A stretch of DNA of 49,743 nucleotides, counting the filler, from Bipalium vagum (taxonomy: Eukaryota): assembly GCA_037834085.1 (NCBI GenBank). It is 2 parts of 2 records of this genome, joined end to end, with 100 filler letters (N's around TTAATTAATTAA, not from the genome) between each part and the next. Parts side by side here need not be neighbours in the genome. Positions count along the whole stretch, not along the records: positions 1 to 31,742 come from JBBMKC010246989.1; 1 more part is not named here. One strand, given 5' to 3'. The notes under the pieces are model-generated. The model was not told the DNA's origin and did not search any database. It saw only the letters and a list, made by a program, of their open reading frames with translations. The position numbers were made by a program, and so were the translations under genes. Shown one piece after another: positions 4,046 to 49,743 of the stretch. The stretch's first letter is position 1. The number at the start of each line of letters is the position of its first letter.

Positions 4046-4964
4046 TTACAATCTGAAATTAAGTACAAATGAATTCTTATAAACAGTGCAACATAATTAA
4101 ATTAAAGAAGACTGAATTCAACTTATCAATGTACATCAACATATGTAGATGAATGCGGAAAATTAAGATGTCATTAATAATATTATTAAGTGTTTCCATG
4201 ATTCTGTTCACCGGATGTTTTTCTCCTTGAATTTTGGAAGAATTAACAAATAATTCATGGTTATGCTTTTTGACTGAAATGGAATTTGAACCAACTCCCA
4301 CTTTTTGACAATTTTAAAAAGCCTATCCTTTGATTTGATTAAGGGTTTAAGGATTGATTTGATTTGTTACGATATTTGATATTTATGGTTGATTAAAAAT
4401 CTATGATTTGATTAGATGTTTCTGACACCAAACTGCTGTTGCTGGATGGAAACTAGGATTTTTACATGAAATTATTCATGGTTTTGGACACGGAGAATTC
4501 ATTGTTAAGATTGATCACTTTAATTAGAAGGTGATATTGAAATTATGCAAGAACTGTTATGGGTTTGGATTGTAGAGTTATTATTACTCTTTTTTGATTT
4601 ACTATTTGATAGATCATTTCACCTCGTTAATTTTCTAATTTAAATTTAATAATTAATTATTTTTATAAATAAATAATTTTCTAATTTAAATGTTCAATTT
4701 AAAAAAATATATTTAAAAAAATATAAATATTCTCCAAAAATTTTAAAAATTATTAATAAAGATATTATTACATAAATTAAGTAAGACGAGATCGAGGTTT
4801 ACCAATAATTGCATTTATTATTTATTAACTTTTGTCACCAGGATGTCAATTATATAACATTTTATTCCATTTAAATTAAGGTCAATTAAAGTTTTTATAT
4901 CTGTCACATGAAATATAACTAAACATAAAATTATAAAAATATACTTTAAAAAATTAACATACAC

Positions 4965-5152
4965 AAGATAAAATCAAGTAAAAATGAATTATGTGAAAAA
5001 TGTTCTCATTTTTATATTTAAATGTAAAAATTTGTTTTATTGATTAAATATGCTCATTCTACAAATATAAATTATACAAAAAAATAAATATCGAAGTTTC
5101 CGAATATTAGTGATAAGAAATTTTTTTGGAGAATTACAAATTATTGAAAAAG
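4965..5152 (+). pseudogene. 5' fragment (upstream flank plus first ~20 codons) of a third UBE2K-like paralog
   Basis: 5091-5152 tcgaagtttccgaatattagtgataagaaatttttttggagaattacaaattattgaaaaag aligns with 6001-6062 atgccgtttcttaatattagttctaaaagaattttaggagaattacgaattattgaaaaaaa, with the ATG lost and a 1-nt insertion. Upstream aaaatcaagtaaaaatgaattat (~4970) resembles aaaatcaaattaaagtgaattat (~5890). Similarity ends where the Gypsy integrase sequence begins. Confidence 0.7.
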
Positions 5153-5750
5153 ATAGTGTTTGGTCTTTTCATCATAGTTTGGAGCAGAAAAAGTGGCCTA
5201 TTATATGAAAGACAATTATTTAATTCCAAATCTTAACTAAAAAGTTCAGGAAATCATTAAAACACGTGGGACTTGTAAGAGATATAAGTCGTCACAACGA
5301 AGACTAAGTGGTACTGAAGTAGAAGCTTCAGAAATTTTTGAAAATATATATGTAGATATATGTGAGTCTCTAAGGGAAGCTACCGAACGAAAAAATATAT
5401 CCTTGGACTAGTAGATAAATATAGAAAATACATTTCTTTGACTGATATGGTTAGACAAGAGAGAACCCCATGCAAAAGATAATTTTGAATAATTGGATAC
5501 TGAACTTCGGAAATCCAAAAACTATAAATGTAGAGCGTGGTAAAGATTCTGACTCAAAAGACATGAAGGATTTTGAAAAGAGAGTTAATGCCAATCTCTG
5601 TTTTTCGAGCCCATACCATTACTTTAAGCTACAGACGACTAAGCCGAGATCTTTCCAGAAGTAGAAATAATCGCTACAGAAAATAATCGGAATAAGTGCA
5701 GTTGAAATTGTGTTTGGTAGAAAGATTTGATCAAATTTAATGAAATTTAT
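5153..5750 (+). mobile_element. Ty3/Gypsy integrase fragment (H2C2 zinc finger and rve core), degenerate
   Basis: ..HH..GAEKVAYYMKDNYLIPNL..KVQEIIK..GTCKRYK...EIFEKIYVDIC...YILGLVDKY.KY...WILNFGNPKTINVERGK...FSSPYH. Same type as the integrase at ~32600-33400. Confidence 0.8.
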
Positions 5751-6000
5751 GACGAATGCTCGATTGTGTAACATTTTAAATTTCGTTAAAAATTTTAAAA
5801 ATATTATAAAATTAAAATTTTGTACTTTGATAAAATTATTAAATGACAAATGAAAAATGACACAAATAATTTCTGAAAAATTACATTAAAAAATCAAATT
5901 AAAGTGAATTATTTAACATGTGTAACTGTTTCCTTAATTAAATCAATTTGTTTAATTACGTATGCAGTATTAAAATATCAATTAAAACAAAAATAGTATA

Positions 6001-6600
6001 ATGCCGTTTCTTAATATTAGTTCTAAAAGAATTTTAGGAGAATTACGAATTATTGAAAAAAAAGCCGTTCCAGGATTTTCTCTCAAACTTCAATCACCGG
6101 AAAATTTGAAAAAATTAGATGGAATATTTTTTGGGTTTCCTCAGTCCCCCTATGAAGGTGGTGAATACATAGTGGAATTTAAGATTCCTGAACAGTATCC
6201 GATAAAACCACCAAAAGCTTATTTTAAAACGAAAATCTGGCATCCAAACATCAGTTCAAAAACTGGTTGTATTTGCTTAAATATTTTGAGTTCCGATTGG
6301 GAACTTAAGTTAAATTTGTTAGATGTAATGCAGGGGATTTATTCGCTGCTCGTTTCAGCCGAGCCTGATGATCCACAAGATGCACAAGTGGCAGCTCAAT
6401 ATAAAAACCATGCTGATTTATTTGAGAAAACTGCAGCATTCTGGAATTATCAATATGCTGGAGGAAAACGACGAGATGAGTTTGATGAGTTTGAAGCGAA
6501 AATCAAAGAAATAATGGAAAGAGGATACAGTAGAGATGAGTCCATTCATGCGTTGTCTATGAAAAATTGGGATGTTACTGAAGCATTTAATATCTTGTAG
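6001..6600 (+). CDS. UBE2K: Ubiquitin-conjugating enzyme E2 K-like (E2-25K/HIP2/Ubc1 family; UBC + C-terminal UBA), paralog 1, intronless, 199 aa
   Basis: PYEGG, WHPNISSKTG.IC92L.IL, AEPDDPQDA.VA.QY, and a UBA helix ALS.KNWDV..A. Catalytic Cys is at position 92, as in human UBE2K. AATAAA at ~6634. Confidence 0.93.
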   Translation: MPFLNISSKRILGELRIIEKKAVPGFSLKLQSPENLKKLDGIFFGFPQSPYEGGEYIVEFKIPEQYPIKPPKAYFKTKIWHPNISSKTGCICLNILSSDWELKLNLLDVMQGIYSLLVSAEPDDPQDAQVAAQYKNHADLFEKTAAFWNYQYAGGKRRDEFDEFEAKIKEIMERGYSRDESIHALSMKNWDVTEAFNIL

Positions 6601-6879
6601 TGGAAATGTTTTAAATTGAATGGAAAAGTATTGAAATAAAGCACTAGTATTATTTAATTTAAATTTAAAAATATGTATAAAATTTTTGATGGCATTAGCA
6701 TCTGAACTTGAATTAGTGCTCCGATTTTAATGCGTGTTTAGAAATGTATGAGATCGAATATACAGTTTGTCGGGAAATCGAGCAACACTACTGTTATGAT
6801 GCGTTATTTCAGTGTTTACTTTTTATTCACTAAATGTGATACAAACTAGAAAAAATGCACAAACTCGAACAGATACTTA

Positions 6880-7400
6880 ATATTTTGTCTGTCTGTACTT
6901 TTTTAAACTTTAATTTCTCTTAGCCTATTGGGCATAGAAAACATCATTTTTTGCAGAAATCAGTACATAATTCACTGTTCCACATTTTAAGTATTACTGA
7001 AATAAGCTCCATTTTGTTTTTAAAAATCTTTAAATGTTATTTTTTGCTCATTATCTCTCACAGATTTTCTACGGGTTCAGATCTGAGCTATTAGGTGGCC
7101 AGAAAACTATTGGAATACTTTCATTAGGAAACCATTTTTTGACTGTTTTTGATCTATAACATGGTGCATTGTCGTCTTGAAATTTAAAATAATCTAAATT
7201 AATATCAGAAAAATAATCTCCTGTTGAATTTAATAGAGATCCTTCTAATATATTTATATAATTCAAAATTAATGGTACCCTTGCAGATTTTAAGTCTTAC
7301 TATACCTTTATTGGTTAAACAGTCCCAAAACATTACGCTATCAAAAAATTTTTCAGTTAGTGTAATACAATCTTGAATTGTCTTATCTTCTGTAATCCAG
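6880..7400 (-). mobile_element. Tc1-like DD34E transposase C-terminal half, degenerate
   Basis: SVMFWDCLTNKGIVRLKICKG...NYINILE...FKFQDDNAPCYRSKTVKKWF....IVFWPPNSSDLNP*E (ORF 7069-7266). Confidence 0.85.
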
Positions 7401-7414
7401 ATATTTGTAATATT

Positions 7415-7720
7415 TTATTGGTCTTCCTTTCCTATTAAGCACCATTTGATTGGGCAAATCTTTTGGTAAAACCAGAACGAATTTTGTACCATTCTTCTAT
7501 GAGACATGCTTTTAACATTTCTTTTTCTGGTTATCTCTCTCTTCCTGAGTTTTCTTTTCAAGTAGGCCCATAAATTCTCAATAGGATTCATGTCCACTGA
7601 TTGACCAACCCATTTCATGATCTCAATACTTATATCTTCGAGCCACTTTGTCACAATCTTCGCCGTATGTTTCGAATCCTTGTTATTCTAAAACTTTAAA
7701 TTATTTTCCATATCAAGTTG
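7415..7720 (-). mobile_element. Second Tc1-like DD34E catalytic fragment
   Basis: F*NNKDSKHTAKIVTKWLEDISIEIMKWVGQSVDMNPIENLWAYLKRKL corresponds to FQQDNDPKHTA...WP.QSPD.NPIENLW. Confidence 0.85.
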
Positions 7721-8911
7721 TTGGGGGGCTTGTATGTAAAATATTATTATATATAATAATTATAAAATAATTAACAATAGTTAAAATACATAATTTGTAT
7801 AATTTAAATAAATAAAAATAAATAATTATCATAATATTAATAAATAATATTTTTAATTGGTTAAACAGAAAGCTTTAAAATCAGTTGTCCTTAAACTGTA
7901 AAACTAATCTTCCCTAAACATAAATGTAAAGTGATGTTTCGTCTGAAAAAAAAAGTCAGCCGCAAAAAAACAAAAGGCAGTTTTTATTTTTGATTATTTC
8001 ATGACACGCTCAAATGACAACAAATAAAGAGAGAGAAAAATAAATTTTACCCACTAAGAAAATTTAGAGAACTTTGACAACTTTGCAAATAATTAATAAT
8101 TTTGTAGAAGTGCTTAATTTTCTTCTACAAAAATAAAAATGTCAAAATGAACCAAAACCCTTACAATAATAATATTTATGGAGTACAATTAGTGGAATAT
8201 TTGCCTAGCTGTCTTAGACATTTTGCTGAAGTAATATATTTTAATGCTAAGATTTATTAAGTGATAAGCACGTTCGAGCTTTCATAATCAGAAATTTATG
8301 CCTCTAATGATATTTTCCACCATGTCATTAATATATGAATTAATGGTCCTTTTAACAAACTATTCAACTAGTAATATTCTCCTTAAATATATCCTTATTA
8401 AGAAAAAGGAACAATATATATTTTTAAAAAATTAGCGACTTGATTAGAATTGAGTTCCATGTTTTTCTTTACAAATTATCATCTTTTCCAGAAAAATAAT
8501 TTTAATTTTTGCCAAATATCATTATAATCTTTGAATTTTTAACATTTTTTTATAAGGTTTATGAATTGTTTAGTTTCTTCCACAATGGACTTCGCTTAGT
8601 ACGATATTTCACGGACATCAAAAAATTATAGTACTAGCCGATATAACGTATTAATACAAGTGTACTTAATATTATTTTCGAGTCCTCTGATGCTTTCACT
8701 TTTCTTTTCCAATAATTCCATAGGAAACAACGAATTACAATTTTGTCGATATCCATTTCTTGCATAGTAATTTATATAAAATTATATATTTTTTAAAGTA
8801 ATCATAAATTAACGGATTCAGATAAACCAAGGCTACAGGTGGATATCAAATTTATTATAGATGTTACTATTATTAATATTATATCTCATTGTTAATATTA
8901 TATCTCAATAA

Positions 8912-9666
8912 TGTAAATGCGATCGTCTGCCAGTGACTCCTCAATTTACTAAAGTTGTGCTCGAAACTTGGCTAACCTCAGCTTGAATCAAACTCCTCAC
9001 AATAAAACTTTATCTAGTGAATCAAAGCAAATCACAATAAAACTTTATTATAGTTACATGTACCACCCAAAATCACAATTTAAATCAATTCCATACAAAA
9101 ACCAATGTAAATCAATTCTCTGAAAAATCGAGTCAATGTAAGCGAATTTTAGAATAAGATAGGATATTCAAAAGAAAAATATTTAAACAATACTAATCAT
9201 ACAAACAAAACTGAATATAATCAATTAAAATAAAATTAAGAAAATCAAGTAAATAATCTCACCAGAGCGAAAGGGGTCCCCGGGTCGTACACTAAGCCCT
9301 TTTCAGGTCGCCTAGGGATTCCCAAGCTCGTTTGGTCCCCTTGTGTAATCCAGTTGCAAAGCCATATTACAGGAGAAAAACAATAATTATTATTGTAATC
9401 TCATCTACAAAATTCCAAAAATCTGATTAGAATCTTCGTCTTCTTCAGAAAAATTAAATTAAACTCCGGCAAAAATCTAAAAATCTGTCTGCAAACTCTG
9501 TAAATTCTTGTCAATATTTCCTAATGGACACTGCACGAAAATAGCTGTCTCTTTATATAGTCGCAGAGATTTGGCTACGATCACCAATCCCTACGACCCG
9601 AAGCGGTTATTTAGAACAAAAGCCCATTAGATGAAATATTACTCAGACGACGGAGTTAATTTGGCA
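8912..9666 (-). mobile_element. Probable solo LTR (TG...CA) with CCAAT-like box, TATA, splice donor and poly(A) signal
   Basis: Minus strand reads TGCCAAA...gATTGG...acTATATAAAgag...GC-rich block...ctg|GTGAG...T-rich...AATAAA...tttaCA. It abuts Tc1 coding sequence at 9667. No target-site duplication was recognised. Confidence 0.45.
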
Positions 9667-10080
9667 TTTTACGGAAGACCAGCACTCTTACATCTTTCTG
9701 GCTGAAGCAGCCCAAAAATCCATGTAAATTTCGATGTTTTTGCAAGACATTCCGGTAGGAAGACTTCATTTGATCTTCAAACTCTGAGGATAGGAAACGC
9801 TTCGAATTATCAAAGCAATCATTTTTAAATATCTGCTATACCTTGGCGTCGTTTTCAATGGCCTATCACTACCTTTTGTTCTGCTTACAGTCACAGTTGT
9901 ACATTCTTTTAAAATAATCTTCCGAACAGCAATATAGGAAACAGATAACTGATATTTCTTCAACATCATCCTACTTATCTGTTTATAGGAAAACCCTAAG
10001 TCACGAAATGCACATACCTTTGAACGGTTTTCATTTGATAATTGATAGCCAAGTGTGGAATTCATTACTAAGTGTACTAA
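9667..10080 (-). mobile_element. Tc1-like transposase N-terminal fragment
   Basis: ORF 9766-10065: QLSNENRSKV.AFRDLGFSYKQIS......VS..AVRKII.K...T.TV.R.KGSDRPLKTTPR..R.L, a Tc1 HTH with a GRP-like linker. It may be the 5' half of one of the 6880-7720 fragments. Confidence 0.8.
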
Positions 10081-10829
10081 CCATTAGATAAAGATACGGT
10101 TGGTGAATTTTAAAAATATCTTACTTCAGTATTATAAAAATAAAAGATAATGTCAAATTTTTAAATTTGCAATTCTCAAACCTAAATTTAAATCATACTA
10201 AAAGATTTAAAGTATTAAATGATATCGTTTTAGCAGATATTTTTTTTTAGGTTAAATGTACCTATAAGAAAACGGATTCAGTTATTAATATTATAACATC
10301 ATCCTAAGCGAAGAATACTACACTTCATATTTTACGGCAAGCGTTTATTTTATTCTCCTTATTCTAAAAATAATTTCAGAATATCTTTCCTTTCTCTTTA
10401 CCTAAACTCCTTTTGTAATATACAAATTAAATTAATATTTTTATGCTTAAGAAATTATCTATATTATTTAAGGAAAATTTGATAATAAAATCTTATTCAA
10501 TTTTTGTTTCGTTGACCTATCGAACTTTTGATCTTCAAAAAAAAATAAAAATGATCCTTGTTAGTTAAAGAATTCTGGCTTTAAAATAATCTAATAAAAA
10601 GTTATCAGTTATAAAATATTTTGACAATTCACGAGATTATTTCCAAGTACAACAGATTTTTATAAGACCTTCCAGAAAAATTATTAATAAATATGCAATA
10701 GTCGATCTAGAAGATAAGGCATAAAGATTTATATTTTTTTCATTATTTCTTCAACTTTTTACTAACATATTTATTATTTTTTCAGTTACTTCTTTATTAA
10801 TTTTACTTCGTGAATCTATTGGTGAATCT

Positions 10830-11095
10830 ATTATCATATCTTTGCAAGATTTTTCAATTTTTCCTCTGGAACAGCAGCCACATTTTCCTAAGTAGTCATA
10901 TCTGTTTTACAATCTGAACGTGAAGTCATCAAAGGATGTTCTTCCCGCTCAAAAGGTACGGAATCAACGCCTCACTACTTGGTTCCAAAACATAATTGAT
11001 TTCATTGCCAATGTCTATCGCAGAACTTTTCTTTTTAAAGCAGTACGAAAGTAACGCTCATATTTCTTCAGAACTAAATAAAAATTCTTTTTGAC
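10830..11095 (-). mobile_element. Mariner N-terminal remnant, highly degenerate
   Basis: EEI*ALLSYCFKKK.SA..I..EIN.VL...SFDDF.RS......T*ENVAAV resembles the mariner N-terminal HTH/linker. Confidence 0.4.
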
Positions 11096-11749
11096 TTATT
11101 TTGATTTTTAATAATTATTAATAATAAATAAAATTTAGAACCTGTATTTTTAAAATTAATTTTTATTTGATTTAATTAAACAAATATTAATATAAGCAGA
11201 TGTGAGCCCTGGATGCTGAAATGCTCAAGACTTTTCAATTATATTAATATACAAATGATTCGAGTAGGATAATGTGATGCTTAATATACGTGAAACCCTA
11301 AGCCAACAAATTCAAAAAGTATTCCTTTAATTTAGTAATGGATTATTTTATTGTCATAGGTATACTTTATGAGTACCAATCTTCAAAAAGCGTTGTGAAG
11401 AGTAATTATGAATTTCTTTTAATGTCTTTGAAATTGAATTACAATAACAACAGGAGAACGAATAGAAAAATACTCAATATTATTATTATTATTGCAACTA
11501 TTTGATTAAGTAATAACCATAATTACGCAAATTAATAAAAATCTGTGCCTTGAAGCAATATAAAAATATATGGTATTTACTTATACTTTGTTCTCAAAAT
11601 ATTTATCCTAAAAATTATTTTAATTTAATAAAAATTACTTAACGATAGATTAACCACCATTACAAAAATGTTATGTATTGTTATGTATAATAAAAGATGA
11701 AATTATTAAAACAGCTATTATTTTCTTTACAACCTAATAAAATAAATAA

Positions 11750-11909
11750 AACTTCCGTTGATACGAACTCTGTCAAAATATTTCTTAAACCCGGACTAAA
11801 TTTCATGCATGAAAATTTCATCTTGAAATTATTATTAAACGCTTAATTTGGATAAGACTGTCCGAAATTTCTTGGAACTGGTACTCCTATTAACTGAGAG
11901 CTACTGTAT
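11750..11909. mobile_element. pogo/Tigger-type terminal remnant
   Basis: Ends in ...taactgagagctactg-TA (reverse complement TA-cagtagctctcagtta), a Tigger-like CAGTA terminus. The partner end was not found. Confidence 0.35.
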
Positions 11910-12004
11910 ATATTTTGCAAAATATTATAAAATTTTTTCAGTATTAGTAGAAATATTAAGTAATCAGTAAAACATTTTCTTTTATTTATAACTCAGTTTT
12001 AATG

Positions 12005-13046
12005 ACACGTGATACATATCCTAAATATCCGGACTATGTATGAAAGGTAACACTCAAGCAATCAATTTAAATAAGAATGAACAACTATAATATATAAATT
12101 TATTTTTAAATTGTGTTCGAGATACAATTCTTACACCGATGCATGAGTTCCAAAAATGCTCGTGGGTAGAAACGCCCCTGAAAGTAATTTCAGCACTGCT
12201 TCATATAAATTCTCAGTAGATTCGAATTGTCTGCTTCATTTTTTTTTTCAAAAGTCGGAAAAGCCAAAATTTACTTTGTGCAAGGTCTGGACAATATGGC
12301 GAACGTGGGACAACAATAAAAAACCAACATTAGTCATAGCAGTGGAGGAGAGAACACTTTTGTGGATTGGTGCTTTGTCTTGCAAAAGCAATTGTGGTAA
12401 GCCTCTAGGCTTTCGTCGTAGAAAGCGAGTTTCCATTCATGTTTGCTCGCAGGTATATATAGAGACTTAGAGGCGTTTCACAAGATTCTTGGGAAACTGT
12501 TCTCAAAATTTAGACAACAGTGCAGGCAATCTTCACAAATCTCGATAGATGGAAAAGATGGGATTAATAGAGATGAAAACTTTTGAATTTCGAGAGAGGA
12601 AAATGTTTCTTGCATTTTGCGCACGTCAGTGTTAAGCCTCCTGGTCAACTCCTTGATGTTAATCCTTCGTTCATTTTTGACCAGTTTCTTACGCCGTTTC
12701 TTTAATTTTTCTTCATTTCATTATAAATACTTTTTCTACCACGATGAAACTCGGAAATCTAACAATAAATAGTCGTTTTGAAGAATATTTATAGCCGTAC
12801 GTATCAAATAGTTAACTCTGAATATTGGCATTTGATTCTCCACAAAACGAGATATTTTATGAAACTTCTATATTCGATTGAATCCACCTTATTTTTTATT
12901 CACACACTTATTTATTACAAAAGAATTTGTAAATAAATGAAATTCCATTTTCATAACCTATATAAATTGTGTTTTCAAATAAAATCAATTCATAAATTTC
13001 CAATATTTTCATACCTAGTCTAGGTATTTAGGATACGCGCCACATA
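12005..13046 (-). mobile_element. Internally deleted mariner with both TIRs
   Basis: Imperfect ~40-bp TIRs: acacgtgatacatatcctaaatatccggactatgtatgaa and ttcatacctagtctaggtatttaggatacgcgccacat. Internal LLLQDKAPIHKS (HDNAP.H-like), frameshifted YSPDLA region, and ERRINIKEL N-terminal remnant. Confidence 0.85.
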
Positions 13047-13061
13047 TTAATATTAAAAATA

Positions 13062-13947
13062 CAGTCGTGGCCATAAAGTTAGCATATTTTTAAAAACTTA
13101 ATAAAATTAACAAAATCTTAAATATCACTAATTATATTTTAAAATTTTTTAACATAATCACAAGAATATTGAACACAGGCCTTTATTTAGTCATATGGCC
13201 TATAGCTGTGATAACTGACTTCAATCGCTGTGGAATACATATATGTTTAATTTTCTCTTGTAGATCAACCCAGGTTGACGGACCGAACTTCTATAATTTG
13301 AATTTACGAATGACCTAGCAATTTTTTATCGAATTTATATCGGGTGAGTTACCTAGCCATAGACTTATCACAGAAACTGGTTTGATGTCAGTCAGTTTGT
13401 TATCTGCCGAGAAAGATGACAAAGGACATCATCCTGATGAAAATATTAGCAATTTAGACTTTCCATGCATAGCAGAAGTTTATCATGCAATATTGTACTA
13501 TAAACATTACCATATATAGTGATATTTTGCGGGATGAACCACAGATCACAACATCCTCTGCTACTTATGTAACACAAAATCATATGTGAATGAGAGTGTT
13601 TGACGGTTTGCGTTGTAAAACGAGGATTATAACGTTGTCCAGGTGAACGTCGAACTCTAATCTTACCAAGCTGTTGAATAGATGTTTTCTGAGGTCCGTG
13701 TTGATATTTACGGTTAAAAATGAGTTGATCTTTGATGTTTTGGCTGTCAGTCTGGGCTTATTTCCATATATCAATAAAAGATAATGAAAGATTTATTTAC
13801 AGTTATGATTTATTGATAAATTTATTTCAATAGTCTACTTTCATTAATATTTAATTAATATATATTAAAACTTACAAGTAGAAAGTTTAAACAATAAACA
13901 AATTATAACAAAATTTTCAAAATATGTTTCTTTTATGGCCACGACTG
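13062..13947 (-). mobile_element. Non-autonomous Tc1-like element with perfect 16-bp terminal TIR core and TA target duplication
   Basis: TA-cagtcgtggccataaa...tttatggccacgactg-TA. Internal WLGNSPDINSIK and IPQRLKSVITAIGHMTK* Tc1 motifs. Confidence 0.9.
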
Positions 13948-13950
13948 TAT

Positions 13951-14290
13951 ATTAGGGATTCAATTTAATTATGAGTCCCTAACCAAAAATACTTAAAAAT
14001 AAATTTTATTATTAACAGACAAATATTAATTGATTAAATATTCTCCATCAATCTCGAATAATCTCTAACATATATCTACCAAATAATGAATTCCATCGGA
14101 ATAAAATTCATAATTTTTGATAAAAAATTGTCTTAAGACTTCATAACACAGCTCTCTTAATTATTTTTTTTTCATTTTTGATGCATGAGGTTTAGTATTA
14201 TCATGCTGGAGAACCCATTTTCTGATAACCAAATTAAATTTATGAGAAAAATTATTTGATTGTGCTTTTGAGTTGCAAAAACTGTCACGG
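13951..14290 (-). mobile_element. Mariner 3' fragment
   Basis: TIR-like ttagggattcaatttaattatgagtcc, WVLQHDNTKPHAS, and C-terminal EFYSDGIHYLVD....EIDGEYL. Confidence 0.7.
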
Positions 14291-16158
14291 TTTTGTTAAA
14301 ATCGCATTCCAAAACCTTTTATGAAAAAGGTATTTTGGATTTGTTGTCTCGTTCGCAAAAATGTGTGGAAGTTGGAGGAGGTTATATTGAAAAATAAATA
14401 TAAACTTGATACATATTTGTTATTGAAATTTTTAAAAAATCTGTTGTATATTTATAGTTCCGTTTAAATATTTAATGGGCGATTTGCAAAATTTTATTTA
14501 AATATTTTCAATATTTCCGATAGAATATTTCTAAGTACTTTTAAGCCTTACCATGTTTATGGGGTCCCGGTTAAAATAAAGCTTTTAATGCGACTCTCCT
14601 AAGAAGAAGTTTGTTCAGTCTTAGCTTAAGCAATCATTAAATTGATAAATGAAAATTAGTACTGAAAAATGGAATATTTTTTTAATTATGTTTTTTGAGA
14701 TGATTTAATTTAAAAAAGATTAAAAAAGAGAAGAAAGATATATATAGGAAATACAAACAAGACAGAAAACAATCATTATATTGGGTCCTCACGGATGATA
14801 AAAAAGAGAGCATTTTCTAAAATACAAAGATTCTGATTTTCCGTGACACTGAAAATAATGCTTAATTGATTTAATACTTATTTTTACTTTAATTGTTTAT
14901 TGTTATATTATTTATCTTCATTTCTGAAGTTCTCTGTCACTATCTGATTTTTAGAAAGTAACAAATGTTATTTTACAATTATTTACATATTGTGGTGTGC
15001 ACATTCTCACAATGATGCCATCTAATTTATTATTGTACTTCAATCATTAACTTTTGGACGGTAAAAGTATTTTCAGATTTTAAAACGAGCTGATTCGTGT
15101 TCGGGGTTTTCAATCAGAATGGGATTCAGGTTATGAATACTCGTGGGAATAAATGTAAAACGTTTATGGAAATCATAACAATATTTATCCATTACATTTC
15201 TCAATGGTCCTGTTTTTTTGCTCACGACTTCTCTTTGCCTTTCTGCATGTTCGTTGTGGTAAAATAAAGGATGTGATCTAAAATGATTCTATGGACAGTA
15301 GATTCAAATGCACGACGATTCTGCTGTATGATCTACTAAATGATCAAATGTAATGAAATACGAAAGAATAAAAGTCTAATTAAGGTGGAATATAAAGATC
15401 AAACGATATCAAGAGATCAATAAAACAAATTTGAATCGAACTATTCTTTGAGAAGGTGACCAGAACTCAGTAACATAAAAATTTTAAGTATAATTTAATA
15501 ATAATTCTTAAAAAGTTGTGTAATAATGAACAGAAACGTTAAGTTTTCAATGATTATTACGAAATAATAATGAACCATTATTTATTAAAGGGTTTAACTG
15601 TATTCACTGAAGTAATCTTTGTTCATTAAAACCATTTTCTCGAGTTATATTCGAAAAAATATGTCAAAACTTGAAAGTTTTTACTGAATTGTATTAACTC
15701 TTTGCTCTTAATTTTTAAAAGGACATTTTTGTTTAATATGATTTTTTTACTATTTCTTTTTTCATGAAATTTCACAAGAAATTCGAAAAGAAAAGAATAG
15801 TTATTTTTTTATTAGATATTATTTATTTTTTTTCAAATATTTTTTAAGATTAGAAAGGTGATGTAATAGTGAGGTTTTGAGTAAAAGTAAAAAAATAAAG
15901 ATAGAAAATGTAACCTTAGATAAGTTGTGGGGCATTTTTTGTTTCTTCAATATTTCAAATTTATCAATAATCAATAATAAACAAATTGATTAAAGTTAAA
16001 TAAAGTGTGAAAAATTTAAAATTTCAAAATGACTTTAAAAATATAATAAACTGGTGGAATGGTCATAAAAATTCATATATTTTCCTAAACAATAATCGAT
16101 TGCATGGGAATGAAATAAAAATAGTGCAAATTATTTTATTCCATTAAATTCGATTTGA

Positions 16159-16758
16159 TTATAAAAGATCTACAGCTTCACTGACATCCCAATTTCTCAT
16201 TGATAATGCGTGAATAGAGTCTTCTTTGCTGTATCCTTTTTTCATTAGCTCACTGATTTTTTCTTCAAACTCATCAAACTCATCTCGCCTTTTACCCCCA
16301 GCATAATGATAATTCCAAAACGCTGCTGTTTTCTCAAATAATTCCGAATGGTTTTTATATTGAGCAGCCACTTGCGCATCCTGGGGATCATTGGGCTCAG
16401 CTGAAACCAGAAGCGAACAAATGCCCTTCATTACATCCAATAATGTTAATTTCAATTCCCATTCACAGCCCAATATACTAAGACAAATATAACCCGTTTT
16501 TGAACTGACATTTGGATGCCAGACTTTGGTTTTGAAATATACCTTTGGAGGTTTTTGTGGATATTGATCGGGAATGTCTAATTCAACTTTGTACTCTCCA
16601 CCTTCATATGGTGATTGAGGCAATCCATAAAATGTTCCTTCTAGTTTTTTCACATTATCAAAAGATTCAGGTCGGACAGAAAAGCCAGGAATGGGTTTTT
16701 TTTCAAAAGCGTTTAATTCTTGCAAAATTCTTTTAATACTAACATTACTAACCTGCAT
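16159..16758 (-). CDS. UBE2K: Ubiquitin-conjugating enzyme E2 K-like (UBC + UBA), paralog 2, intronless, 199 aa
   Basis: The ATG at 16758 (MQVSNVSIKRIL) gives 600 bp, collinear without indels with 6001-6600. Contains WHPNVSSKTGYIC92LSIL, AEPNDPQDA and a UBA tail ALSMRNWDVSEAVDLL. The ORF-track start at 16782 is a non-ATG codon. Confidence 0.93.
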   Translation of the reverse strand: MQVSNVSIKRILQELNAFEKKPIPGFSVRPESFDNVKKLEGTFYGLPQSPYEGGEYKVELDIPDQYPQKPPKVYFKTKVWHPNVSSKTGYICLSILGCEWELKLTLLDVMKGICSLLVSAEPNDPQDAQVAAQYKNHSELFEKTAAFWNYHYAGGKRRDEFDEFEEKISELMKKGYSKEDSIHALSMRNWDVSEAVDLL

Positions 16759-17029
16759 TAAATGATTTTTTATTTTAATCAACTATCTTTAATATGCTTT
16801 TTTTAATTAATAAAACAAATTTTTCAGCCTAATTTAGCGGATTATATTATATTAATTTAAATTTTTAAGATGAGGTCACGAAATATAATAAATTTATAAC
16901 AAAGTTTAAATAATTAAAAAATTTCTAAACAAATTTATTACCCGGGCTTTTTTTTACTGAGCTTAACTTTCTTGTCAACTTCAAATCTTTTAGCTTTATA
17001 TAATTGCATTAAAGATTACATTGAAACAA

Positions 17030-20547: not shown

Positions 20548-21263
20548 TGCAAGGAGGAAACGAAAGAAATCAGAGTATTTTAGAGATTTAATTCATAAAA
20601 GCACACTTATTTTTTTTCATATAAAAAATACAGTTTTCTCTAACCTACCAAAATTTTCATTAGTCGTGGACCAAAATACTATATAAGGAGAAGGACTTCT
20701 CCATAATTTCGCCCTCAACTAGAAACAGTTATTTTGGTTTAGAAGACCTTATTTGCCGAAGACTATCATGAAAACTATCGTTGAAGACATATTATCGTGA
20801 AGACTATCCAGATCTGAAACCCAAGTACTTTGTAAAAATGATATCTTGCCTGGGATTGTATTTGAGTTCACCCCCAGAGGGCTATTTCTGAGCAACTTAA
20901 AGGCTCAGCTAATAGTCCGGGAAGCTTAAGCGAAGATAACTCGTAAGCTTGTTCCATTATTTTTTTATTATTACATATTAATTTGATTATAATTTTTCTT
21001 ATTTGATTGTTCATTAATTTTAATCATCTAATTGTGTTTCGTGACTCGTTATTATTAACTTTTGTTTTTGATCGATTACCCCAAACAATTACAGATATTT
21101 CAGACCTTATTGTGATTCCTTTCTCTTAAGTTTGGCGATTTTTGTGTTATTATTATCACTGTGATTTCGTGTGAACTTTGTGTTATAAATACAAGTTATT
21201 GCTTTACTGATTGTTATTATTTTTGCACCACCTAAGAGTTGGAGTCAGGTTTAACTTTGATAC
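20548..21263 (+). mobile_element. Probable solo LTR with the same layout as 8912-9666
   Basis: TG...acTATATAAggag...gaagactatc repeats...GC-richer block...ctc|GTAAG donor...T-rich tract...CA. Non-coding. No TSD recognised. Confidence 0.4.
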
Positions 21264-22587
21264 ACTAAATAGTGAACAAAATTAAAAAATCTTGTGCATC
21301 TCATTCGAAATAGCTGCAGCATATTTCTTTTAAATGACTAAAAGTAATATTAATTTTTAGCTTTACTTTTGTATCTATATGATATATTATTAAAATTTAG
21401 CAAAAGTGGTCGCTATTAAGATCGCCGCTCTCCATAAAACGCTTCACGAATTAAAAATCGCTCTGTAAGTCTGGATTCTAAAAAAAATTGTAAGAATAAA
21501 AATAAAGAAATATTAAATTCCAATTAATAAAGTTTTAAAATATATTGAAATTGATGATTAAAAATCTCTTTTATTTAACACTATTTTCTACTAGAAATCT
21601 TTAACCAATTTAATTATGAAAGGAAAATTAAATTTAGATAAAGTATACCAAAAGAAACACATAATATTTAAATATTTAAATAAAATATAATCTAACTTTA
21701 CAAAGCATTACTATAATATTAAATGTCTATAATATAAAATGTATATATAAAGTAAATTATTATTTTTATAGATTTTTTATTTTATGTAAAAATATATATT
21801 TATATTTTCTTAGTTAATTTAAAATCAAATTAATTAGAAAATTGACTAGAATTAGTTTATTTTAGAATAGATATCACTAGAATCATAAAAATTCGAAGAA
21901 ATTATATAAAATGGTTCAGAAACTATTCCGCAAAAAGAAAAATTTTTGAAAAAATATTTTCAGTGTATTTTTTCTTTTGTTATGTCGGAACAGGATTATT
22001 CAATGAGTCCCATGGAGCTTTGGAATTCATAGGCGACCGTAGAAGACCTAGCGGACGATCTTGAGAGCCATTGCTCCCTCCCGTACGAGACTCTTTTTCT
22101 TTTATGGGTTGATTTCTGTTTTACTTCTTAGTGAGAAATAAGTAAATCTAGAGTTTACAGTTACACCTTTACATGCAAATATACATGTATAAACGTAACA
22201 ATACTACTTTATACCTTTCAAAAAAATCGAAAAAAAAGTTTTAGATTGAAGAATTTAAAAGACAAAAATGTAATGGTAAAAACAAAAAGTCAATCTTTAG
22301 GATTGAGTTATAATTTTTAAATATATAAAACAAATTTGAGGAGTATTCTACAAAATTAACAGAAGAAATATTACTATAAAATATATTAAAACATAACCCT
22401 ATATTTTTTCAATATTATTTTCATAAATTTTATAAAAGTGATAAAATTATTCTTCATGTGATATCTTTTATAAAATCTGATAATTAATTTTAAAAAATAA
22501 TTTTTTAATTTATATTTTTCTTTAAAAATTTAATAATTAATTGAATAATTAATTAACTAATTAATTAAATTGAATAATTATAATTAT

Positions 22588-31842: not shown

Positions 31843-31920
31843 ACGCCAAATTTGTACAGATTTTAAACAAATATCAATATCTTTCAATGCATTATTAATT
31901 CTTATTTCGTTTTGGTTTGT

Positions 31921-31986
31921 AAAAAAGAGAATCTTATTTTGAAAAAAGATAATCTTATTTTGAAAAAGGAGAATTTTATTCTGAAA
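31921..31986. repeat. 21-bp tandem repeat x3 (aaaaaagagaatcttattttg consensus)
   Basis: Three adjacent imperfect copies. They account for the spurious QNKI(L/I).F repeats in ORF 31795-31992. Confidence 0.7.
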
Positions 31987-32469
31987 ATGCAATATAAAGT
32001 TATCTTACTTTTCTGATTGACTTCCAGAACCAATTAATGTTATCGCTGTGGTTTATTCTGGAAAATTATTAATATTTGATATTGACCAAACACCATACTC
32101 TGACTTCTTCACCTTTACAATGTTTGGATTCCGCGATAATCTTCTCAGTAAGATAACTTATTCAATAAGATTCAATTTACAGCGCTTCAACAAAATGACA
32201 AGGATAATACGCATAAAGTGTTAGTATTATTATTGCGAATAGATTGAAAATGGCTAGTGGAGACCACACCAAACTATAAATGGTTGGCATGATCTCCACC
32301 AGATATTTTTTACCCTGCTACAAGATTAGATTACCAATAGATCTTTTTTCACGTATGCTCCTAATTTTATATTGTTAATTTGTTCTAACTATATTTAAAA
32401 ATCAATAATTTAAATAATTTTAATTATTGATTTTACTGAATTATTAAGATAAAAATAAAATCTTCATAA

Positions 32470-34270
32470 TTACTTATATCCCTCTTTAAAGATATCTCTT
32501 CAGCTTTTCCACATTCCTTTCAATCTGCTTGCCGTCACTACTCTGTAGGATTTTTCTTCGGTCATGTACCTTTATCATTACTTTGTATGGTCATTCAAAG
32601 CGTCCTTGATCCTTTTTCCAACACTTCTTTCAAATTAAAACGTCTTCTGATCTCTGTTATATCTATAAAATTTCCTGTGATTATTTCACTCGTGTGTGGT
32701 TCCCAATTTGTTCTTGTACCTATTCTTGTATCAAACACAAATTCACCTGGGCTTGCATTTATAGATTACTTTCATAGACTACTTTCAAATTCGATCTCTT
32801 TGAGTATGTCAGACAAATCTCTAATTTTACTCTCTTCAAACATAACGTTCATTAGACCTCTCATCGTCCGAAACTGTCTCTCAATCTTACCATTCGTGTT
32901 GGGATGCTAAAAACTTGAAAAATATCTTTATATTTAGTTTTTCTGCAAATCCGCTCACGCGTCTTGATTCAAAAACTCTCTCACAATCCTGTCTTTAGCA
33001 TCCAAATTTCGAAATCCATTCGTTCATAAAACTTTTTTGAATTGTGTTTTCGTTTGTTTTACATTCGATTCTAATTTTACATACTTGCTACTTTTATCGA
33101 TTATTCACAAAACTTACCTCTTACATGCCCACCGTTTCTCTTAAAGGACGACATATATCCGCATATATGTTGGCGAATATCTCACGGTCTTGAACCACCG
33201 TCACTTCATCTTTCGTCTTCGAAGTCAGAACTGTATGCTTCGTATACTGACAAGCTCTGCATGAATGAACTATCTGTTTAATCTTAGTTCTCATATCTTT
33301 TATTCTACATTTATCTTCTATTTATCGGTATACTTTTTCTGCCAACACATGTGTGAACTGATTGTGCGTCACTCGGATTATTTCACTTTTTCGTCACTCA
33401 TTTAATCATCACAGATTTATCGTCTACTGTCATCACATCTAATCTTTTCTAACTTGGCATCCTTATGTTTTGTTTGACAAAGCATGCATGTCGAACATTC
33501 ACTTCTTGAATATATATCTGAATTACCATTGTGCTTCTCCTTTTCTCTATCTTAATTTTATATCTAAAATATGTAGATAATTTAACAAATTCTGGAATTG
33601 TGATGTTATCAGTTTTTTGTTTCCAACAAGAATATCATTGCCTTGCAACCCCTTCTGAGTAAGTCTCCTGTCGTAAAGATAATGTTTAAAATTTTTGTAA
33701 AAATGGAAAATTACCTGTAATTCTTTTCGTGTGACGGAGTAACCTCTTTCATGTCTATTCAGGGAGTAAGATCCATACACTATTATCCTTTCCAGCCTAT
33801 TTTCATCTATTTGTGCCAAAACTGCTCCTATTGCTCCAAAATTAGAGTCGGAATCCAAAATAAATCTGTGAAGAATTTCATAGTGGACTGCAATCATCTG
33901 ATTCCATTCCATTTATCCTGAACAGTCGTGATTTTTCTCTGTCGACTCTTTCTTATCCATGTCTCCCCCTTGTGTTATGACCCTTCCTGTTATATGAATT
34001 TCTAAAAAATCTGATCTGCAATGTCCGCTTTGTCCGCAGTCTATGCAAAAAATCGTGGAGCATCTCTTTTTGTATAATTCTTAATCATATTCTTCACATC
34101 CCCAGAAATTTATTTTTCTGAATTTAGATCTATCTATGTGCTTATTTCCAACATAGTTCTTCTTTGATTCCTAATTTCCCTGTGTTTTGAATGTTTTGTA
34201 CAATGTGGCTGGATTCTATTTGACTCTGTCTGATCAACTCATCTTCTCGCTTCTCCCTGCGGTCTTATGT
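32470..34270 (-). mobile_element. Deleted Ty3/Gypsy retrotransposon (gag zinc knuckle, RNase H, integrase, PPT; RT largely missing)
   Basis: CIDCGQSGHC knuckle (~34020-34050). RNase H RFILDSDSNFGAIGAVLAQ...IVYGSYSL...ERGYSVTRKEL....F.HYLY. Integrase QIVHSCRACQ, EIFANIYADIC.PL, WISKFG. Purine tract aaagaggg near 32480. Confidence 0.88.
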
Positions 34271-34601
34271 TGGCTTAATGAATTAAATGCCAATAATTTT
34301 TTGAAGATTTCATATTTAATTTAGTAAATCGAAAACAGAATATAGTATTTCGTAAACTGAAATGAATTTACTATTGATTACAAAATCTTCACATTAATTT
34401 TAAGGAAAAATAATCTTTATTAGTTATTAATCTTAATTTTAATAAAATTATGTTAGTTATATATTTCATTTTATTCTAAGAAAAATTATAATCACATTAA
34501 AAAATATCATATTATCAAAGTTAGTATTCTGAGTTTTGTAATGACATTTTAGTAAATTTCTAATACAGCATTATTATAAATTTTGTTTAAATAATCTAAA
34601 G

Positions 34602-35799
34602 ATGCTAAATTCAAAAATGAAAAAAATTGCTGTTTCAGAAGTACTTAATTTGCTATTTTAATTTCATTAACATAATTTAAGATAACTTTCTTGTGTGACT
34701 TGGACTTAAATAAATCTCAAATTGATACAATTTTTAATGAAAAAAATTATTTTAGTGTAAAACATTTATCTTTGTATAGCATTATTGATGATTTTTTTAT
34801 TGAAAATTTTGTAAAGAAAGGTAATTAATTATAATTATATGCTGAGTAATATTACTTAGGTAAGGTTGAAATTTTACCTTTTGGGAATGATCATGAAGCA
34901 TTTTATTTTTCACTGACTAATGGTAAGTAAAGTACTTTTTTAGATTTTTTAAAACCATTGATTTTAGGTAATTTACTCATTGAATTTAGTGAAAAGTACA
35001 AGTCATATATTAATTACAACCATTTCAAAAAATTTGCAACTAAAAAGATTGTGTCGTACAGTAAAATATTAATTTCGATAATTTTAATATTACAGTGTTA
35101 ATCAGAACAGGAGTTTGATCTTCTTTGCGATCTAGATAAACTGCAAAAGATATTCACTGATTTTATCAAACCAAATGTTCCGCCACTTAGTTGTCTTGTT
35201 TGTTTCGAGCCAAAACCTGAGTTCTTCAAACCAGAACAAATCCCTCATTCGATTTCATTACCGTCTTTTCTCGATCCAGAAAATTTTCTAGCACATAAAT
35301 ATGAAGTGGAAAAGGTTAAATTGGATCCAGCAAGTACTAAGTGGCCAATGTTGATTGATGAGTCCCAAGATAATTATGATCTCATTCTCGATTACTTTAC
35401 ACGACTTGTGTTTTGTGCAAGGAATTCGTAATATTTATCCAAAATCTCAATCAATTTGACCTTTTTTTGTTTTAGAACTACTCTAGAGAACATCAATGAC
35501 AACCATGTGAAAATTGACGATGTAAGCAGAACTGGAACCGTATTGACCTTCAGAGGATGTTTCAGTTCGAGTAAAACTGAACAAATCGTTTCCCGTTTCA
35601 GGTATTTGATATGAAACGACAGATGTGTGTTATAATTTCTTGATATCGATTTTTTATTAGGAACGTTTGTGTTCAAAATTCCAATATTGATGCCGTTTTT
35701 GTCCTTAACGATTTATTCCAGATTAACACAGAAGTGACATTTCAAAAATCTCAAATTAATTTGACGAGTTCTTACAACACGCGATCGCGTATTCCATGA
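34602..35799 (+). CDS. RPP40: Ribonuclease P/MRP subunit p40-like protein, 7 exons, ~306 aa (N-terminus may extend upstream)
   Basis: Exons 34602-34640, 34682-34820, 34860-34922, 34968-35060, 35106-35427, 35476-35601, 35661-35799. All introns are GT-AG, 39-59 nt and phase-consistent, with no internal stop. NYFSVKHLSLYSIIDDFFIENFVKKG...SLTNGNLLIEFSEKY resembles RPP40 YYFVKNLPLHELITPEFISTFIKKG...LLPNGKLILSLDKDTY. AATAAA at 35815. The frame is also open upstream to an acceptor at 34568. Confidence 0.75.
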
Positions 35800-36199
35800 A
35801 AATTGTTTTTATTCAATAAAAATGTTTATTGAAACTGATCATTCACTGAAATTATAAAAACTTTTTATAATAAGGACATTATTTTACAAGTAAGAAGTGG
35901 ACACATTGATGTCGGGTCAAAATAACTGGATCTAGTTTTCTAGGCGCGGTAACCGATTTGAAATAAATCACTTTTTGTTTTAATCAATAAAACAATTTTG
36001 TTCATTATTTCGGTTTCCAGCTAGTTAACAAAATAGAAGTCACAATTTTGATATTGCGCAAACAATAGGTTTAAATTAAAATTTTTCATTGTTTTTTTAA
36101 ATCAATATGCAGTATGAACCTTTTTTTGAGAATTTTTGGTTTTTAAAGTAAAATGGTTCTCTAATTATTTCTATCTCGTACAATTATTCATTTTGTATT

Positions 36200-36930
36200 T
36201 AATCTCCAGTGCCTGAAACAAAGTCATATTCCAGAGTTGAACAATTGTGCAATGTCTATTCGTGTACTCTGCTCGTTTACAAATGACTGTTTTGTCGGGC
36301 TTTTTTAAAGTTCATTTGTTCTTACTAAGTCAAATAAGTACAAATCGACTTCTTGTCTCAGAAGGGTCATCTTGTTTTTTGATGCAATGTTTTTCATTGA
36401 TTGTGATAATAAGAATCTATTTTACCATTGTTCACATGGTTGGACGTCTTATGTAACTATTGATTTATACAGCTAAAAATACAGTCAGTATCAACATCAC
36501 TCCTGAAGAAATCCAAACCTCTGGTTGCACAAAATTCCCATTCAAAATTGGTTTGTGATATGCCATACTCGTCCATTGTATATTTGATTACTATATCTGG
36601 GAATGTCAAGCCCAGGGAATGTCAATAAATGCCCCAAACTACAAGACTCACTGTCTTTAACAGAGACTTGTTCGTTTTTGTTGAAAAATAATACCCTGGA
36701 CGAAACTGCATTTTCTGGCCTGACATCATGCAGTTTCAAGTTTTCGTTATCTGGAATACAAAAAATCCATGTAATGAAGAAGTGCAACAATCCAAATAAT
36801 GTCCCTCAGTGCCCTCCCATTGAACATGAAGAGATCAAAAGACGAGTTTTCGATAACAAGTTTCATCCACAGTCAGCAGCTCAACTTAAATTGCATCTTT
36901 GTGCAGTCATGGATGAATTGGTACTTATAT
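36200..36930 (+). mobile_element. Second DD37E-type transposase remnant, more decayed
   Basis: TPEEIQT...TKFPFKIGL*YAI...SINAPNYKTHCL*QRLVRF, CIFWPD, and NNPNNVPQCPPIE..IKRRVF (NPPNVPQ.RPIE motif). Confidence 0.75.
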
Positions 36931-37920
36931 GGGAGAAAAGTGATTCTTATAGGTATTTTTAAGGTGGTGGGTTCTTTTTATGTGTAATTTTTCTGAGCGG
37001 TAATTCCTGAAAACTCTACACATATTCCAACACCCCTTGTTTACTCCGAGACACAATTTAAGGTCTTATATTCTTATCTGAGATATGGTTTCAATTGCTT
37101 TTTGACGTAAAGCACATGGAATAGACAAAAGGGTGATGTGTAGGGGGAGTTGGGAAATACACCATCTAGACTCAAGTTTTGTTTTTTTTATATTTATTGG
37201 AAGGTTATTTTTCTTGTGTATTGTAAGTGAACGGGAAGAAAATCAGCGCAGCCGAAGACTGGCGAAATCAGGTAATTTTCTTATTGTTTTTGAGCGCACT
37301 CTGCCTGGTGATGATTGCCAATAAAGAAACCAAGAACACAATGCCAATATAAGCCGATGAAGGGCGAAACAAAAATAAAACATAGGACGATAAAAAAGGC
37401 AGAACATAAAAACAATTGCGAATTTAAAAACAGTATTAAATGATGATGAAAAAGCGTATCATAAAATAAATGTTGATTATTTTTTCATTCTCCTCCTTAC
37501 TATACTAACTTTTGTAGTAAAGTACGGGTCCTGGTTGACAAAGCATACCCAGATGGATTGTCTGTTCATAAATAACATGTTGTTATATTTATGTTCTTTA
37601 ACATATTCATTACTCTTACTTTTCAAAACTATAAAAATAAAATTCTACGAATCAATTATACACACCTTATGCAGTTAACATCAGTTAATCTGAATATTCC
37701 TTTAACCTTGAATAAATTACCTACAGGTTTCAGTAGGTTCAGAAAAATTTCTTGTTCAAGTAATTAGAAGAAACATGATTTTAATGTATTATAAAATGTG
37801 CCACGAAATTAAATGTTAAGTCAATCTTAAAATTGTCTGTAAAATGTTTATGTTTTATGTTAATTCAATATTCTAAGGTATAATTTATAATTAATTTTGG
37901 TTCGCTTTTGAATTTTAACA

Positions 37921-38412
37921 TATTAGGCAACCGATAAAGTTCGTGAGTTTTTTGCCTATATTTTTTTATTGATAGGAATTATTTATATTTTGTTATTTGG
38001 GTTAGGTAATATATTTTCTTTCAAGTAATTTATAAAAATTTATCAATACTTGTTTAGACGCTCAGTTACATAAATAAAAATGGCCTCAAAAAAGTGATAA
38101 TAATAGGTTGCATACTCTATGAGTACAAGCTTGGCAGCAAAGATAGGTATCGGGTTTTGGAGATGATGCTGTAAGTGATTGGACAGTTCAGAAGTGGTTT
38201 AAAAAGTATTCATCGGAGATTTCAGCTTTACCGATGAAACACGTCCTGGAAGGCGAAAGGTCATTGATAACAATAATCTAGAAAAATGGTCGAGGTAAAT
38301 TAAAGTACAATGTGCTTTGAAAAATTAAATTTGAGCAATGAAACCATTCGGATTCATCTTCATCTGATGGGGAAAAAGTGAAAATAAAGCAAATGAGTCA
38401 AACATGATTTAT
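37921..38412 (+). mobile_element. Mariner 5' fragment
   Basis: TIR tattaggcaaccgataaagttcg, ILYEYKLG, FGDDAVSDWTVQKWFKKY.SGDFS.TDE.RPGR, TIRIHLHLMGK..K...*VKHDL (WVPHEL-like). Confidence 0.85.
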
Positions 38413-38897
38413 GATTTCATTCATACCATTATTTTCTATTAATTTGATTTTTGTACTTTCTTTTAGTACTTAAATCAATTTATAATCATTTTGCCATTGA
38501 ATTTAGTTTGTGATTGATTTTTTAATTATAGGTTTTAATAAAATAAAGATTAGTGATTATTTTGATTCATTGAGGGTTATTGTGAGTAAAGTGTAATACA
38601 GTTATTTTGATTCACGAACACAAAAATAATTCAAAAACAAGTCAGAGTTTACGAGGACAACGTTAAATTTTAAGTATAATAGTAACAGAAGATCATTTGA
38701 ATATTGAAAAATCAATAAAATATTGTTTCAAAGCATTGTTAAAGGGCTACGAAACTCGATGAACGGAAATTTTTTAGAATACCATGAAAGATAAAGTTTA
38801 CCATTTATATCATTTTTCGAAAATAAAACAATATAAAATTAAAACAATTATTTATTATAGTCTACGTTAAACATCTTGATAATCATCTATGAGATTG

Positions 38898-48568: not shown

Positions 48569-48645
48569 CTTAAAATTTAATATTTTATGAAAAATAATAA
48601 AAGAAATTTAAATAAAAAACATAAGATTAAGTTAATAAATAAAAT

Positions 48646-49580: not shown

Positions 49581-49743
49581 GTTATTTAGTTTGTTTGTAA
49601 TTTTTCAAAAAAAAGTGATTTTTCAGGCAATCGATTATTACAACTGATTTAAATAAACAATAACAACAGTTTATATATAAAATTGTACATTTAAAAGAAA
49701 TTTCTATCATAAATTAGTGTAAATAACAAAATGATATAAAACA

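Follow-up and report, generated by a model that had tools for sequence, protein, structure and literature searches.

UBE2K (also E2-25K or HIP2; Ubc1 in yeast) is a ubiquitin-conjugating enzyme (E2) that is normally encoded by one slowly evolving gene. Old intronless paralogs of ubiquitin enzymes that have been expanded by duplication are a familiar pattern in nematodes, flies and mammals, and rodent UBC4-testis is an E2 retrogene with a male-germline bias. In human UBE2K, K97 contacts Glu51 of the acceptor ubiquitin and residues S85, S86 and T88 are essential, as reported by Middleton and Day (PMC4655369). Nakasone et al. (PMC8964413) describe further substitutions: F68A/A102R eliminates stimulation by RING ubiquitin ligases (E3s) while E3-free activity is retained, M172D/L198R removes both the binding of ubiquitin and the recruitment to primed substrates, and with D94A no di-ubiquitin is formed; the main text of that paper writes F62A where its Extended Data legend writes F68A. 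Here we describe two UBE2K-like genes, g1 and g2, in a stretch of Bipalium vagum DNA (assembly GCA_037834085.1) of 49,743 nucleotides (nt), the whole of which we call the window. The explanation that we favor, at a probability of roughly 0.6, is that g1 and g2 are E2 paralogs with a single coding exon, kept under purifying selection, that the family of which they are members is old, occupies many contigs and likely goes back to one retrocopy of an ancestral intron-bearing UBE2K, with later duplication as DNA, and that they encode predicted ubiquitin carriers with new partners.

The g1 gene (positions 6001 to 6600, plus strand) and the inverted paralog g2 (16159 to 16758, minus strand) each consist of 199 codons and a stop codon, without an indel, and lie tail-to-tail with 9,558 base pairs (bp) between their stops, in agreement with a preliminary description of two intact open reading frames (ORFs) about 9.5 kb apart. 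The earlier count of 55 differences in 199 amino acids was reproduced (72% identity); the 132 nucleotide differences amount to 22% divergence, which makes an assembly artefact as unlikely as had been supposed. Differences in sense codons fall mostly at third positions (32, 25 and 74 at positions 1, 2 and 3, respectively). The single-exon claim holds for the coding region, which is the sense in which we use it; the 5′ untranslated region (UTR) may have an intron. Positions 1 to 31742 constitute one whole contig (C246989, about 27% G+C) of the assembly that we searched, which comprises 441 Mb in 272,664 contigs. No stop-to-stop frame of more than 122 codons other than g1 and g2 was found in this contig, and the two intron-rich host genes that had been noted in the window are both located in its second stretch, and so are not neighbors of g1 and g2. 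When 106 ORFs from the whole window, chosen partly from 182 stop-to-stop frames, were scanned, the Pfam matches at E <1e-4 besides the E2 genes were transposon fragments only. Both g1 and g2 match the Pfam family UQ_con and retain the catalytic Cys92. Among solved structures, UBE2K chains are the best relatives of g1. The AlphaFold2 model of the g1 product (mean confidence, pLDDT, of 86) has a template-modeling (TM) score of 0.91 to full-length UBE2K (7myh), and the model and Foldseek show a C-terminal three-helix UBA fold; the Pfam UBA scores (20.1 and 19.8 bits) are below the cut-off of 22.4.

The preliminary description spoke of a local family and implied that it was young, neither of which was supported. 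A genome search gave 32 matches among 62 candidates, and family sequence lies on 11 contigs other than that of the window, the contigs being unplaced. Further intronless copies, which the preliminary description had suggested looking for, were found there: C105221 (87% identical to g1) and C61804 (44% to g1) carry complete single-frame genes, as do g1 and g2 themselves. Other members are open but are cut by a contig end or split (C243925, C54853, C17510, C251683, C238211, C42218, and C156835 with C249409), and C99500 is a frameshifted 3′ remnant. The assembly contains at least eight distinct family genes in two subfamilies, A and B, and the coexistence of intact copies and decayed stubs reflects birth and death within the family. 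C156835 (L004) and C249409 (L028) represent one split gene with an overlap of 77 identical nt; one contig carries the 5′ end and the other has unrelated sequence in its place, which would be either an insertion allele or a truncated duplicate.

The copies also share DNA outside the coding region. The 3′ ends of C251683, C238211 and C42218 are nearly identical, with common flanking sequence well past the stop codon (91% over 258 nt in one pair), and about 110 nt of upstream sequence is common to g1, C105221 and a truncated stub of the family that is described below. Because flanking DNA is common to copies, we conclude that the family spread by DNA duplication after the loss of introns, as had been proposed.

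In a tree of 52 rows, which omits the shortest fragments and the stub, all 17 family rows, namely nine unnamed proteins from public assemblies and eight rows from this genome, formed one clade (support 100/99), and both subfamilies mix sequences from this genome with outside ones. The clade forms part of an animal-type group of 46 rows (100/99), to which the protists and fungi in the sample do not belong. A metagenome contig (L031) carries a single frame over 180 codons with a 1-nt slip near its 5′ end; it is an apparent orthologue of C156835, with 72% identity at a synonymous divergence (dS) of 1.4, which is about the g1/g2 distance (dS 1.57). By these measures, the family is old and dispersed over many contigs. 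One family locus was present among the best 80 of 305 matches in the metagenome scan, a search at 50% clustering returned one family representative with no more distant member at the top, and the ESM Atlas search yielded only generic UBC-plus-UBA and ubiquitin clusters. No planarian-named protein was among the matches, even when an exon of the canonical gene was the query, so the lack of named planarian family members is uninformative. We found no description of a flatworm UBE2K paralog family in literature coverage that excludes most subscription journals. No RNA data set was listed as containing the genes, which is neutral as to their expression; one sequencing run, possibly the source of the assembly, was listed. 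In contigs assembled from that run, depth was 19-27 for the window, 14-22 for exact pieces of the canonical gene and 64.6 for a C17510-type contig; these values fit collapsed copies, and since depth is no copy number, we did not rely on them.

Pairwise fits of the GY94 model gave, for g1 and g2, a nonsynonymous divergence (dN) of 0.151 and a ratio of dN to dS (omega) of 0.096 (p 8e-22 against omega = 1). Omega was 0.093 for g1/C105221, 0.205 for g2/C105221 and 0.091 for C61804/C243925 (each p <1e-9 against omega = 1). The purifying selection that had been postulated is thus evident in the range of 0.09 to 0.21 across pairs, and by this measure g1 and g2 are intact under purifying selection and, hence, functional by selection. 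In comparisons with the canonical gene, divergence is saturated and omega is not meaningful. A whole-genome duplication was considered as a source of the paralogs and rejected, given that dS in eight other pairs of E2 genes extends from 0.37 up to saturation, with no single peak.

The proposal that the family began with a retrocopy called for an intron-bearing UBE2K in the same genome, and one was found. C36003 carries a five-exon UBE2K with introns of 45, 47, 46 and 52 nt, all GT-AG, after nucleotides 63, 216, 299 and 528 of the coding sequence; we take these positions to match those of four human UBE2K introns. The C36003 protein groups with named UBE2K of cestodes and trematodes (97/87), which marks the host as a flatworm; this position and the base composition suggest a triclad. 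The complete single-frame ORFs of g1, g2, C105221 and C61804 lack all four introns. Among 372 fetched proteins, the C-terminal motif LSMKNW was present in four family proteins and in six named or clustering flatworm proteins; it also occurred in a truncated relative of these and in an unplaced protein. A retrocopy origin of the family is likely because four of four introns are absent and the C-terminal motif is common with flatworms. The intron-bearing homolog and the absence of its introns from the family thus stand, whereas direct descent is neither shown nor rejected by the tree: in approximately unbiased (AU) tests with 29 rows, neither sisterhood with C36003 (p 0.17) nor sisterhood with the flatworms (p 0.19) was rejected.

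A repeat family in the same genome contains pieces of spliced canonical UBE2K mRNA (C232177, C220864, C136076 and others; L030, L191-L218), and is an RNA-captured gene fragment that was then amplified. We counted 64 matches on 40 scored contigs of 159 candidates. The first exon junction is spliced in 19, and the last in 18, of the 25 copies examined, so that, judged from these junctions, spliced UBE2K RNA was demonstrably reverse-transcribed in this lineage at least once, which also favors a retrocopy origin of the E2 family. Most of the examined copies have one common internal deletion (around nt 105-306, and in a subfamily also 401-508) and common non-UBE2K flanks, which makes this a single capture event, far more recent than the origin of the E2 family. 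L027 and L030 were considered as independent processed pseudogenes and rejected, as both are copies of this one repeat.

We compared the family with human UBE2K at residues of known function; the residue numbers of the human protein and g1 coincide from 31 to the end of the UBC domain, and the human row is an M172A construct. Both g1 and g2 retain H81-P82-N83, S85, S86, T88, C92, D124, P125, Q126, D127 and A128. All 17 family rows have Cys92, the HPN motif, S85 and S86, and the 16 rows that are filled at 124 and 127 all have D at both positions. Other positions are replaced in g1 and g2, respectively: R11 by G and Q, F68 by I and Q, D94 by N and S, K97 by S and G, and M172 by R and K, with V87 replaced by K and A102 by L; L198 is absent, as the chain ends one residue short. 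In subfamily A, the subfamily of the window genes, F68 is found in 0 of 10 filled rows, and K or R at 97 and A or P at 102 in 0 of 11 each. Subfamily B has F68 in five of six rows, D94 in six of six and K/R97 in four of six, and on these counts the rewiring is strongest in subfamily A. In the other UBE2K rows, F68, K/R97 and A/P102 occur in 34 of 35 each; in 404 other pattern-matching proteins fetched (of 469), F or Y at 68 was present in 399, D94 in 396 and K/R97 in 372. Residue 11 of helix 1, presumably an E1 (ubiquitin-activating enzyme) contact, is basic in 35 of 35 other rows and non-basic in all 15 filled family rows. The earlier assignment of the genes as UBE2K-like is, therefore, upheld for the fold, Cys92 and the acceptor loop; the replacement of K97, D94, the RING-docking residues and the UBA-patch residues had not been noted. 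We predict that the proteins are E2s whose partners have been rewired, in contrast to generic K48-chain builders.

One could envision the following course of events. One retrocopy of an ancestral intron-bearing UBE2K would have founded the family, and DNA duplication would then have spread it. In the present proteins, an E1 would charge Cys92, and the S85-S86-x-T88 loop, together with D124-P125-Q126-D127, would still frame the active site. With F68, A102, K97, D94, M172 and L198 replaced, generic RING-stimulated K48 extension on primed substrates would not be expected; the enzyme would more likely attach ubiquitin singly or in short chains, in partnership with a dedicated E3 that is specific to the lineage. 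We infer an active E2 without the generic RING and UBA contacts that works with its own E3. By analogy, a role in the male germline has about even odds as a prior, which is taken from the germline bias of retrogenes in other animals (PMC5470649; PMC5131818).

Several observations weigh against this interpretation. In the free tree, the family has a long stem (0.72); it falls outside the canonical animal set and is not adjacent to C36003. At 14 flatworm-diagnostic sites, the family has the flatworm state 39 times and the state of other animals 48 times, and residue 54 is G in 16 of 16 family rows and A in nine of nine flatworms. These states indicate that the modern form of the gene was not the source of the family, and the founder probably split off before the flatworm gene reached its present form. 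Inspected by eye, the flank alignments showed neither a poly(A) tract nor a target-site duplication; such remnants are not expected given the age of the family. On the functional side, D94 is replaced by N or S, while D94A kills the activity of human UBE2K, so activity of the N94 and S94 proteins is not guaranteed. Finally, in Dugesia ryukyuensis, ubiquitin-mediated proteolysis heads the list of sexual pathways, yet the only "e2 k" transcript that the main text of the study mentions is asexual-biased and weakly expressed; it is not assignable to this family (PMC6467871).

The long stem and the placement outside the canonical set would also be accounted for if the family were an old DNA-level duplicate, or a gene from another animal lineage, whose introns were lost or never present, with no retrocopy founder. 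The equivocal diagnostic sites, the weak adjacency to an unnamed P0010/P0132 group (88/29) with the same 26-residue linker length, and the fact that several other E2 genes here likewise match in one frame are in line with this possibility. However, all four intron positions are empty in each of the four complete genes, LSMKNW is common with flatworms, and the G+C content at third codon positions is the same (0.27-0.28) in g1, g2 and the canonical gene. A contaminant is further argued against by a repeat common to the window contig and a polyubiquitin contig. We consider an origin of this type unlikely.

A second alternative concerns the partners of the family and rests on other divergent genes of the ubiquitin system in this genome. 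The ubiquitin search gave 30 matches of 91 candidates, among them canonical ubiquitin and NEDD8-like genes, and uncovered single-domain ubiquitin variants (L131, L132, L133, L136, L138, L143, L145-L147) about 45% identical to ubiquitin, which lack K48 and K63. Several have a di-glycine end; the variants terminate in GG plus one residue or in di-glycine plus a short tail. These proteins could possibly be chain terminators or separate modifiers. The E1 searches identified three UBA1-like genes, two ordinary and one divergent, and one UBA6-like gene. The divergent gene (C224867, L167) shares 45-67% identity with its paralogs over the compared stretches of exon and has open exons and the catalytic motif, with an altered crossover loop and C-terminal domain; C205955 (L188) may be the 5′ half of the same gene. 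In another UBA1-like gene (C11241, L165), positions 4457 to 6457 form a 667-codon uninterrupted frame where the paralog C207175 has many introns, which by comparison with that paralog is partial intron loss.

Our family might then be the E2 arm of a separate, lineage-specific cascade in which the divergent third UBA1 paralog loads the K48- and K63-less variants onto these E2s, so that degradative chains are capped or replaced, plausibly in the germline; the E1-, E3- and UBA-binding surfaces of the E2s would possibly have been rewired so that the cascade was partly insulated. The selection on the variants (omega 0.18, p 3e-5 for the pair C119120/C196067), the open exons and catalytic motif of C224867 and the uniformly non-basic residue 11 of the family speak for such a cascade. 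On the other hand, no physical link, co-expression or binding ties g1 and g2 to the variants or the E1, and a second divergent E2 group (C210594, C259173, C199979, C136207) could be the partner just as well. Residues E51, D58, Y59 and R72 are all present in the three closest variants, two of which also have the full RLRGG tail; the loss of K97 thus has no counterpart in a changed charge, and these variants could be loaded by an ordinary E1. We regard a second cascade as doubtful. A co-evolution of K97 with E51 of ubiquitin was rejected, as E51 is present both in canonical ubiquitin and in the closest variants.

The proteins might instead be catalytically poor and be kept as ubiquitin-binding or decoy subunits, like the ubiquitin E2 variant (UEV) proteins. 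The replacement of D94, K97 and the RING surface, together with the effect of D94A on human UBE2K, would be explained in this way. However, Cys92, HPN, S85, S86, D124 and D127 are invariant in all filled family rows, and the main ubiquitin-binding patch of the UBA is lost rather than retained. Moreover, N or S occupies the D94 position in other E2 genes of this genome (L022 and L029). This explanation appears improbable. A young and purely local amplification of a recent retrocopy, suggested by three copies within 12 kb and by unplaced contigs that could lie nearby, is highly improbable in view of the g1/g2 dS of 1.57, the saturated divergence from the canonical gene, the mixing of own and outside sequences in both subfamilies and the distance between C156835 and L031 (72% identity, dS 1.4).

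The third, truncated copy announced in the preliminary description is real. This 5′ pseudogene stub (4970 to 5151, plus strand) consists of about 110 nt of upstream similarity and about 25 degenerate codons, and is 70% identical to the region around 5890-6060 over 183 nt (blastn E 3e-12). Its local score of 82 compares with a background maximum of 37 (mean 21.6, standard deviation 3.8; 602 tiles of the same contig). The start codon is gone, there is a 1-nt insertion, and the stub is truncated by a decayed high-copy repeat (about 5180 to 5619, plus strand), with many contigs ending loosely at 5180 and 5619. The repeat weakly resembles the integrase zinc domain of long-terminal-repeat retrotransposons (Integrase_H2C2, E 0.0097, below the Pfam cut-off, with stops read as X). 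An extra DNA match to the stub, C206955, was discarded as AT-rich noise in which no E2 frame was seen.

The region upstream of g1 (5890 to 6000, plus strand), which the stub and C105221 have in common with it, is a putative promoter or 5′ UTR; a short T-rich motif occurs about 50 nt before the ATG in five of seven aligned 5′ ends of the family. The region upstream of g2 (16759 to 16821, minus strand) can be aligned to it (blastn segment pair 5945-6584 versus 16821-16175). Between the two genes is a decayed DDE transposase remnant with DDE_3 fragments (7072 to 7687, minus strand). A repeat at 20849-21284 recurs in a polyubiquitin contig and next to the family sequence on two contigs. In the second stretch of the window (31843 to 49743) there are a retrotransposon RNase H remnant (33550 to 33912) and mariner remnants. 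Elsewhere in the genome, the second divergent E2 group considered above as a candidate partner (L011, L012, L013, L015) comprises four single-frame genes that are 69-82% identical (omega 0.11-0.29), and C220562 (L016) carries a single-frame E2-like ORF with Gly where the catalytic Cys is expected.

A family in which the K48 acceptor loop is kept while K97, the contact with RING ligases and the UBA patch are gone constitutes a natural test of these surfaces, in particular of what linkage choice and E3 use need. If the host is a planarian, RNA interference and in situ work could address the role of the family. It would go beyond the familiar pattern of expanded intronless paralogs only if a connection with the divergent E1 and the ubiquitin variants were true.

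Of the known systems, UBE2K/Ubc1 is the closest. Its UBC domain with C-terminal UBA fold (TM 0.91), its HPN motif, Cys92, the S85-S86-x-T88 loop and D124-P125-Q126-D127-A128 are all found in the window genes, at 43-44% identity. Unlike UBE2K, the window genes lack coding introns and are multi-copy, F68, D94, K97, A102 and M172 are replaced, and L198 is absent. By residue comparison, g1 and g2 are a derived UBE2K variant that fails three UBE2K features, namely K97, the RING surface and the UBA patch. The C. elegans genes ubc-20, ubc-21 and ubc-23 similarly comprise lineage-specific, extra HIP2-like genes beside an essential one, with larval arrest reported for ubc-20 and a wild-type phenotype after RNAi of ubc-21 or ubc-23 (PMC3926112), but that expansion is independent of the g1/g2 family. 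The male-germline retrogenes of flies and mammals are likewise intronless, conserved copies of a broadly used, intron-bearing gene with later DNA duplication (PMC5470649); they differ from the present family in E2 class and phylum, and the g1/g2 family is much older.

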